9,790 nucleotides of DNA from positions 1 through 9,790 of the forward strand of contig CAYHAA010000036.1 of assembly GCA_964354495.1 (NCBI GenBank), given 5' to 3'. Shown here in pieces: positions 54 through 1,417 of this stretch. Under the pieces are notes generated by a model. It made no database searches and was not told the DNA's origin. It saw only the letters and a list, made by a program, of their open reading frames with translations. A program made the position numbers and the translations under genes. Every line of letters starts with the position of its first letter. Within the stretch, counting starts at the first letter, position 1. Source of the DNA: an uncultured archaeon. GTDB lineage: Archaea > Asgardarchaeota > Thorarchaeia > Thorarchaeales > Thorarchaeaceae.

Positions 54-182
54 CTAGCTTCCGCTCTGCCACCATCTCCACGTGACATAGATTCCTCCCA
101 GAACAGGAAGCATGCCAAAGAATATCGTGACCATCAACAACTCCAAGGAATCTAGACCAACGTAGACAGTCAAAAAGGGCAT
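54..182 (-). CDS. Possible 42-aa single-pass membrane peptide, or 3' remnant of a truncated membrane-protein gene
   Basis: Manual translation MPFLTVYVGLDSLELLMVTIFFGMLPVLGGIYVTWRWWQSGS*, a hydrophobic stretch followed by WRWW. It is below the ORF-track cutoff and its ATG overlaps the ATG of the opposite-strand ORF at 181. Confidence 0.3.
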   Translation of the reverse strand: MPFLTVYVGLDSLELLMVTIFFGMLPVLGGIYVTWRWWQSGS

Positions 183-864
183 GAGTATCAATACACCCTC
201 GGGAGATCGTACATTATTGAACTATGGTTTACCAAAGGAAACTGAGAATTGGTCAAAGGAATCAATTATTGCTTACTTACAGGATATGATCTCTCAAGAA
301 GGCCATATTGCAGAGGGAAAAATCAGGTGGGAGCGATCGAATGCACTGAACCCCGGTCAGAAATCTGATGGTTATGATTTGCAACCACAGCTTACTCAAC
401 CAGAGATTGAATTACTCGTAAACAAAGGTCATCATTATCCTGGTGATTATGACGGAGAAAAGACGCTGCGTTGGAACAGAATCAAGGAGTTAACTCATCA
501 TGAAAACCCCAAAATCGCGGAAACTGCAAAAGAATTCTGCAACGTAATCAATGAGAATAGAAACCGTCTGATGGATGATGAAAAAAAGATTGCGAATAGA
601 CTAGGTATTCATCTTGAAGTTAATCCCGAAGAAATGGCAATCTATAGAAGTGGCCGCATATCCGTGAAATGGGAAGCTAGGACAAATGATACAAAATCGA
701 TGATTCGGTGGGCATTAGTATGTTCTCCAAATCATCCGGAAAAAGAAGTGGCTCTTAATAAGTGGCTAGCGAAACGTGATGATGAAGAAGTTCAACAAGT
801 CATTAGCGACTTGCAGAATGAAGGGGTCAATGTATCCAACAACTGGAGGGAAGACATTCAATGA
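181..864 (+). CDS. LAGLIDADG-like (DOD homing-endonuclease fold) protein, single C-terminal-type domain with a large insertion, probably N-terminally truncated
   Basis: YGLPKETENWSKESIIAYLQDMISQEGHI matches the IP..I....E...AFL.GLFDAEG.V pattern of the second LAGLIDADG motif, with the acidic residue retained. LMDDEKKIANRLGIHLEV matches the LL..V..LL.RLGI...I helix, and WALVCSPNHPEK resembles the F...IGF.HP.K tail. An in-frame stop at 163-165 prevents upstream extension. Recognised by eye. Confidence 0.6.
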   Translation: MSINTPSGDRTLLNYGLPKETENWSKESIIAYLQDMISQEGHIAEGKIRWERSNALNPGQKSDGYDLQPQLTQPEIELLVNKGHHYPGDYDGEKTLRWNRIKELTHHENPKIAETAKEFCNVINENRNRLMDDEKKIANRLGIHLEVNPEEMAIYRSGRISVKWEARTNDTKSMIRWALVCSPNHPEKEVALNKWLAKRDDEEVQQVISDLQNEGVNVSNNWREDIQ

Positions 865-1163
865 GAAGAAACAATGAATCAGACAGTGCCGAGGAAGAGA
901 TTCATCAAATGGACCGGAGGAAGGGGCGAGTTCGTCAACATGTCATTCTGATTGCCGATCTTAGTGCTCTCATTGTGAAAGAGCTGAGAATGACTTCTGG
1001 TGGCATGCTCAAAACTGATATCATCAAACGATTTGCAGACTATTCGACCGAGCAAATAGAAGACGCTCTGGAGAGTGCCATAGAGGACGAATACATTGAG
1101 GTTGAAACCCGAGAGAGCGGTGTTCGCTGGTATCACTCTGTCTGCTTTGACGAACCAGAATGA
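861..1163 (+). CDS. Small winged-helix-like hypothetical protein (100 aa)
   Basis: ATGA overlap with the upstream stop suggests translational coupling. The C-terminal 65 aa show helix-helix-helix plus a beta-hairpin pattern (LIVKELRMTSGGMLKTDIIKRFADYSTEQIEDALESAIEDEYIEVETRESGVRWY). Confidence 0.55.
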   Translation: MRRNNESDSAEEEIHQMDRRKGRVRQHVILIADLSALIVKELRMTSGGMLKTDIIKRFADYSTEQIEDALESAIEDEYIEVETRESGVRWYHSVCFDEPE

Positions 1164-1189
1164 GCCAAGGAATATTAACTATGATTAAG

Positions 1190-1328
1190 TGGTAGCGGGT
1201 AGTGGATTTTTTGGCCGAATTATGGAAGTCATGATTCGCGAACCACCGGTCTCAGGGTTATGAGCCCTGCGGGATAGGCTTCGCCCATGGGCGGAGAATC
1301 CGCTCTAGACTGGCTTCCCCAACCCGCT
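1190..1328 (-). tRNA. Initiator tRNA-Met (CAT) with two 30-nt introns (1280-1309 at position 18/19; 1210-1239 at 56/57) and encoded CCA
   Basis: Removing both inserts gives AGCGGGT TG GGGA AGCCAGGCCTA TCCC G CAGGG CTCATAA CCCTG AGACC GGTGG TTCAAAT CCACT ACCCGCT A CCA, a full cloverleaf. The A1-U72 pair and three consecutive G-C pairs in the anticodon stem are archaeal initiator hallmarks. Confidence 0.93.
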
Positions 1329-1417
1329 TTACTTAAGCGATTGTTTTAGCAAACATAGGCGTGTGGTCCAGAAGGGCCTCTGCCAGCGTTGCTTAGACGG
1401 GGAACGGCTGTGGCGGG

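Follow-up and report, generated by a model that had tools for sequence, protein, structure and literature searches.

The window analysed here, a stretch of 9,790 nucleotides that is contig C36 of the draft genome of an uncultured Asgard archaeon (G000), carries on its minus strand an interrupted gene for initiator tRNA-Met(CAU), 139 nt long (window 1328..1190), with one 30-nt intron in the D-loop, another in the T-loop and none at the canonical 37/38 site. The reading that we favor, with a probability of about 0.88, is that the locus is a working, single-copy initiator tRNA gene whose two introns are removed by the splicing endonuclease EndA at relaxed bulge-helix-bulge (BHB) motifs and whose exons are joined by the RtcB ligase. 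A multi-intron layout has already been published for Asgard archaea, so this is a clean example rather than a new type, and the gene leaves the understanding of how such introns work unchanged; the genus-wide series of apparent gains, losses and slides in which it takes its place is a useful extra.

Structure and identity of the gene

All parts of the gene lie on the minus strand, which the earlier note does not name, and are given in window coordinates. Exon 1 (19 nt, 1328..1310) opens with a 5' end typical of archaeal initiators and comprises the acceptor 5' strand, the D-stem 5' strand and the D-loop through G18, and is followed by the D-loop intron (30 nt, 1309..1280), which lies between G18 and G19. 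Exon 2 (40 nt, 1279..1240) holds the remaining D-arm, an anticodon arm without interruption (anticodon CAT at 1262..1260), the variable loop and the T-stem 5' strand through C56. The T-loop intron (30 nt, 1239..1210) then separates C56 from A57, and exon 3 (20 nt, 1209..1190) contains T-loop A57-U60, the T-stem 3' strand, the acceptor 3' strand, A73 and an encoded CCA. For the D-loop we use a numbering of our own, A14 G15 C16 C17 A17a G18 / G19 C20 C20a U20b A21, where the slash, here and below, marks the cut.

Excision of both inserts in silico leaves 79 nt, which ARAGORN calls as tRNA-Met(cat) and in which the four stems are all paired. The spliced cloverleaf has a 7-bp acceptor stem starting from A1:U72, a 4-bp D-stem with an 11-nt D-loop, an anticodon stem with G29-31:C39-41, a 5-nt variable loop, and a 5-bp T-stem closing the T-loop TTCAAAT. 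A1:U72 and three consecutive G:C pairs at 29-31:39-41 are the established marks of archaeal initiator tRNA; both are present here, whereas the elongator Met gene on contig C6 of the same genome has G1:C72 and no GGG/CCC. The predicted junctions AGCCAG/GCCTA and GTTC/AAATC occur exactly in the intron-less orthologues of two congeners (G021 and G005, loci L041 and L042), and a copy of the whole gene with the same two introns is present in the congener G012 at 99% identity. Three proposals made from the letters alone in the earlier note are thus borne out: that this is an initiator-type tRNA-Met, that two non-canonical introns of 30 nt interrupt it, at 18/19 and 56/57, with none at 37/38, and that their removal gives back the T-loop UUCAAAU. 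The ribozyme core of a group I or group II self-splicing intron, hundreds of nt in length, is absent from the 30-nt inserts, and Rfam returned no family in the window at E up to 1.

The genome G000 is a 3.30-Mb draft in 51 contigs with an estimated completeness of 97.7% and an estimated contamination of 3.8%. Three motif searches of this assembly (anticodon arm, 5' exon, and 3' exon in tRNA context) each gave one occurrence and no second initiator gene; the exon 2 sequence GGGCTCATAACCC and the 5' exon motif of exon 1 are each found a single time in the genome. The intact intron-less initiator gene elsewhere that, according to the earlier note, would make the present copy a pseudogene did not turn up in this 97.7%-complete assembly. 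Of two further CAT calls made by ARAGORN, one is the elongator Met gene on C6 and the other, on contig C3, folds poorly. We conclude that the interrupted locus is a genuine initiator tRNA gene, apparently the sole one of this Asgard archaeon. The C3 call, also labelled tRNA-Met(cat) (C3:161795-161924), includes a 42-nt intron, its D-stem is mispaired and its extra arm is long; it is probably a multi-intron tRNA wrongly parsed, perhaps the CAU isoleucine tRNA.

The host genome also encodes a eukaryote-like actin, which reaches 415 bits with Pfam Actin and ~500 bits with eukaryotic PDB actins; none of four archaeal control genomes was positive. This actin supports the placement of the host among the Asgardarchaeota. 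Pfam Profilin and VPS28 had no match in G000, nor in the control genomes, and so are uninformative. The actin gene is split by a contig end, with most of it at C12:94148-95206 and its last 32 codons at C37:3-98.

Splice geometry and splicing enzymes

The archaeal splice rule that we applied is our reconstruction, based on what is established for canonical 37/38 introns. Under it, (i) the central helix (helix H) is formed by four exon bases and four intron bases, the former stopping two bases short of the 5' site and the latter two bases short of the 3' site, and (ii) the cut falls after the second base of each bulge, with the intron hairpin beginning one base past the 5' cut. The T-loop intron has a complete helix H (4/4; UGGU with gcca, that is U51-U54 at 1245..1242 with 1215..1212), bulges UC/g and aa/A, and a hairpin (1238..1230 with 1224..1216) that is 8/10 paired. 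This is the geometry that had been read from the letters beforehand, including the inner helix cgaau with auucg continued by aug with cau and a 3' site aa/A placed in a loop, and all of its elements are present. In the D-loop intron helix H is 3/4 (GCC with ggc, that is G15-C17 at 1314..1312 with 1285..1283, A14 standing opposite g), the bulges are AG/t and aa/G, and the hairpin (1308..1299 with 1295..1286) is 7/10 paired, with three mismatches in G000. The same 3/4 helix with its A.G mismatch is found in 14 of the 16 congener copies of this intron.

All four splice sites thus fit the position after the second bulge base, and a closed 3-nt bulge is present at the two 5' sites only. The 3' sites lie in loops of ~7 and ~9 nt, for which the D-stem or two T-stem pairs provide the only closure, because the exon-side helix is absent or reduced to 2 bp up to the D-stem or T-stem remnant; the intron-side helix is present and covarying. 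As modelled here, both introns are relaxed bulge-helix-bulge motifs and not strict ones. In its minimum-energy fold the precursor retains both acceptor and anticodon arms, and the T-loop intron is seen with its helix, bulge and hairpin. When the intron letters were shuffled, a fit to the rule equal to or better than that observed arose in 18 of 200,000 trials for the T-loop intron and in 589 of 200,000 for the D-loop intron, so the rule fit of both exceeds chance.

Comparison among species adds to this picture. The D-loop introns comprise 13 distinct sequences that are readily aligned, and 5/10 pairs of their hairpin are altered on both sides, with a covariation score of 0.239 against 0.138 in shuffled controls (reached in 0/500) and at most 0.12 when the pairing is slid. 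The four T-loop introns of the homologous type (G000, G012, G009 and G017) have a common apical part and five rewritten basal pairs (cgaau with auucg, cgguu with aaccg, cuugg with ucaag); 4/9 pairs are altered on both sides, and 97% of cells are paired as against at most 42% when slid. The sole difference between G000 and G012 within the gene turns a T-hairpin C.A mismatch into C-G, and the same is seen in an independent DNA contig. Judged by these compensatory changes, the intron hairpins are under structural conservation between species. Elsewhere in the G000 genome the best blastn-short matches to either intron are 13-14 nt, which is chance level, and so there is no hint of copying, in either direction, between them and another gene of this genome.

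Two EndA genes are present in G000, in the regions C7 64948-65196 and C6 24745-25002. The product of one (188 aa) gives a full-length match to the catalytic chain of the Aeropyrum pernix heterotetramer (E = 1e-42), retains the Tyr, His and Lys positions, and aligns without gaps across the Crenarchaea-specific loop segment, while in the other (212 aa) the catalytic His is replaced, which fits a putative structural (beta) subunit. An RtcB ligase is also encoded (588 bits). Typing of the EndA subunits thus gave a catalytic alpha chain with the specificity loop and a beta chain lacking the His, the broad-specificity type of endonuclease that such introns had been expected to require. An (alpha-beta)2 EndA with this loop (L1) has been attributed to Asgard archaea from a sample of genomes that included a Thorarchaeota genome, and the loop has been tied to cleavage of relaxed motifs; in the same study certain Asgard lineages were left with incomplete tRNA sets (Kaneta et al. 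2018, PMC5829648). By sequence comparison the G000 alpha chain would belong with the known (alpha-beta)2 enzymes of this kind (A. pernix 3P1Z/3AJV, Pyrobaculum 2ZYZ; PMC5829648), since its alignment with the A. pernix catalytic chain is full-length and takes in the loop and Tyr/His/Lys. The beta chain of G000 is nearer to the M. kandleri and M. jannaschii proteins than to crenarchaeal beta chains. The tRNA introns of Thermoproteales likewise have relaxed BHB motifs outside 37/38 and are served by an (alpha-beta)2 EndA that bears an additional specificity loop (Sugahara 2007/2008; Marck and Grosjean 2003; reviewed in PMC4090602), but they belong to a different phylum, and the introns here are uniformly 30 nt.

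We infer that both introns are cut out and the exons joined in the following way. Transcription would yield a precursor of ~139 nt, from which a heterotetrameric (alpha-beta)2 EndA would cut each 30-nt intron at its relaxed bulge-helix-bulge. The substrate offered to the enzyme would consist of a helix of 3-4 bp in which the upstream exon pairs with the intron 3' end, a 3-nt bulge with the 5' site, and the intron hairpin, and the 3' site would lie two bases beyond the helix within an enlarged loop. RtcB would then ligate the three exons into a 76-nt tRNA plus CCA.

Other explanations deserve weighing. One that we regard as improbable is that the gene is a decaying or redundant copy which is not processed, the real initiator tRNA coming from another gene in an assembly gap. 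The assembly is indeed a draft of 51 contigs, so that a second initiator gene could sit in unassembled DNA; truncated initiator copies are found in the congeners G003 (L037) and G008 (L181), the D hairpin carries its three mismatches in G000, and no spliced RNA was seen in the public runs. Such a copy would hardly be expected to have spliced stems that are all paired and exons that agree with the intron-less orthologues, or to keep its position near the aIF2-gamma gene (see below); G012 retains it at 99% identity with a single change that is compensatory, the three motif searches gave no second copy, and most of the 28 congeners searched have only interrupted copies. Chimeric assembly of a contig from different strains, or misbinning, scarcely needs to be entertained. 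G000 is a metagenome-assembled genome with 3.8% estimated contamination, but G012 has the same contiguous layout, DNA run X1 contains a single 874-nt contig of ~96% identity with the same contiguous two-intron layout, and in DNA run X5 exact contigs cover window 1119-1269 (across the T-loop intron) and 1305-1450.

It is also conceivable, and we think a little less probable than a redundant copy, that the inserts are real but are not removed by EndA at a BHB (another nuclease acting, for example), or that one of them stays in the mature RNA as an expansion. The placing of both 3' sites in open loops rather than in closed 3-nt bulges, and the three pairs of helix H in the D-loop intron, would suit this reading. 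Against this, the four sites all fall exactly at the positions predicted by the rule relative to helix H. A contact between D-loop and T-loop is needed by every tRNA, and an insert at G18/G19 or in the T-loop would break it, which argues against a retained insert. Such relaxed motifs are, moreover, published substrates of (alpha-beta)2 enzymes with the loop, a type present in Asgard archaea (PMC5829648) and encoded by G000. Removal of both introns by EndA and joining by RtcB is therefore the account that we prefer.

In the public RNA runs X19 and X20 there are no spliced-junction reads (X19 has nothing at all); no public run contains more than 46% of the sampled words. Run X20 does contain an unspliced 151-nt contig of a relative, which corresponds to window 1246-1370 with 11 differences, keeps the D-loop intron, lacks a 37/38 intron and runs on into the other T-loop intron type. 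It may be DNA carry-over, and its layout would be one more intron combination in addition to those described next.

Intron content and history across the genus

The gene was compared by BLAST with the species genomes of its genus, 28 in all. The initiator gene shares a contig with the aIF2-gamma gene in at least nine congeners (eight have it 3-7 kb away, G008 ~16 kb), and likewise in the window, where the distance is 4.3 kb; this shared placement indicates that the initiator genes are orthologous.

At least eight intron combinations occur at this orthologous gene. There is no intron in G021 and G005, a D-loop and a T-loop 56/57 intron in G000 and G012 (which are 99% identical here), D-loop and 37/38 introns in eight genomes, and a 37/38 intron only in G001 and G002. 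G009 has D-loop, 37/38 and T-loop introns, and G017 has 37/38 and T-loop introns. In G008, G011 and G014 the D-loop and 37/38 introns are accompanied by an unrelated 33-nt T-loop intron placed further 3', and the D-loop of G004 carries an unrelated intron of 31 nt that lies two bases upstream and has a 4/4 central helix. The D-loop intron is missing in G021, G005, G001, G002 and G017 and is found in 16 congener copies.

In an aIF2-gamma tree G000 and G012 together are sister to G017 (37/38 plus T-loop) and G006 (D-loop plus 37/38), with support 98/93, and the three-intron G009 falls in a separate clade. Since D-loop and 37/38 introns are in the majority in the genus, the simplest history is a three-intron ancestor with one precise loss per lineage. 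On this single-protein tree the lack of a 37/38 intron in G000 and G012 would most simply be a precise recent loss on their branch. The empty 37/38 site pointed out in the earlier note is real, and since most congeners have an intron there, recent loss is a simpler reading than a special design.

The T-loop intron has likely moved as well. In G009 and G017 the rule puts the homologous intron at 57/58, one base further 3' than the 56/57 of G000, with helix GGUU with gacc and bulges Cg/g and aA/A; the mature T-loop of G009, as read from its sequence, is UUCGAAU, in which G replaces A at position 57. The homologous introns therefore point to a one-base slide. In G004 (L040:1520-1590) the 31-nt D-loop intron follows C17, is unrelated in sequence and has a perfect central helix (GAAG with cttc), and thus appears to have been gained independently within that loop.

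Some further copies were noted. The truncated copies of G003 and G008 keep the D-loop and 37/38 introns and have lost the T-arm 3' half and the acceptor 3' strand; that of G008 lies 2.1 kb from the full gene. Outside the genus, three Asgard genomes from other families of the phylum (L043, L044 and L055) have initiator genes with T-loop introns of ~22-30 nt, and L055 has an additional 37/38 intron.

Multi-intron tRNA genes at non-canonical sites were described in the earlier note as best documented in Thermoproteales, a statement now outdated by Asgard cases published in 2024 and 2026. In three complete Asgard genomes 92-95% of tRNA genes are interrupted, often at non-canonical sites and often by more than one intron, and Supplementary Data 4 of that study includes an initiator tRNA(CAT) gene with three introns (Valentin-Alvarado et al. 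2024, PMC11291895). A 2026 preprint on 90 Asgard genomes reports that D-arm introns escape annotators and infers that introns were gained repeatedly (bioRxiv 10.64898/2026.10.13.758758). With two introns (18/19 and 56/57), both outside 37/38, the present gene belongs among these. The published cases (Atabeyarchaeia and Freyarchaeia; PMC11291895 and bioRxiv 10.64898/2026.10.13.758758) are from the same phylum and also have short introns in the D-arm and T-arm, protein-spliced as is predicted here, several to a gene and missed by annotators, whereas here another Asgard lineage is concerned and there are two introns only, with none at 37/38. The word "initiator" occurs 0 times in the main text of either paper and "Thorarchae" 0 times in that of the preprint, and the tRNA introns of this lineage are not discussed there. 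What the genus adds is a single-copy syntenic gene with zero-, one-, two- and three-intron states whose boundaries are exact to the base; within it the canonical intron appears to have been lost precisely and a T-loop intron to have slid by one base. The series is a compact natural data set for the gain, loss and movement of tRNA introns and for the substrate range of loop-bearing EndA.

Detection by tRNA finders and the surrounding DNA

Neither ARAGORN nor Rfam (E up to 1) called an RNA gene anywhere in the window, yet the intron-less orthologues L041 and L042 are recognised as tRNA by both (57.4 bits in Rfam), so the expectation that standard scans would overlook the gene was correct. Both programs missed all the submitted copies with a D-loop or T-loop interruption, and they missed or mis-called the 37/38-only copy of G001. 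In the nearly complete G000 genome Rfam finds only 26 tRNAs and ARAGORN 31, so many other tRNA genes must be concealed likewise. An essential gene that is invisible to standard tRNA finders makes the genome seem to be without an initiator tRNA, and the exact coordinates given here mend that annotation.

Two overlapping ORFs of 227 and 100 aa (window 181-1163, plus strand) point at the tRNA gene and end 26 nt from its CCA. The 227-aa ORF is only 43% identical in G012, as compared with 99% for the tRNA and 88% for the ORF on the other side, and relatives of both ORFs of the pair adjoin the initiator gene in G008, G004 and G022. No Pfam family was found in the 227- and 100-aa ORFs, and a LAGLIDADG identity considered for them is without Pfam support. 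By these comparisons the pair look like a fast-changing or exchangeable cassette. On the other side, the 60 nt upstream of the initiator genes (L027-L048, L179) are of two unrelated types among congeners, one ending in gtttaagtaa, which is the type of the window, and the other bearing cctacgaataactttaaaactc. Their distribution is discordant with the aIF2-gamma tree, in which the sisters G017 and G006 differ in type, and may reflect recombination at the tRNA gene.

A bolder idea, which we think unlikely, is that the initiator gene of this genus is a site of ongoing conflict with mobile DNA, where D-loop and T-loop introns would come, go and slide because they disrupt the recognition sequence of integrating elements or of a neighbouring nuclease cassette. 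It is hinted at by the at least eight layouts at one single-copy orthologous gene, the shift between 56/57 and 57/58, the truncated copies of two congeners, the two unrelated 5' flanks and the fast-changing ORF pair 26 nt away. A protective role of tRNA introns is an old hypothesis, reportedly put forward by Randau and Soll in 2008.

Directly after the CCA, at window 1170-1189, there is a conserved motif resembling cttaaNcatagttaat that is shared by ~10 congeners and could be a terminator hairpin or an attachment site.
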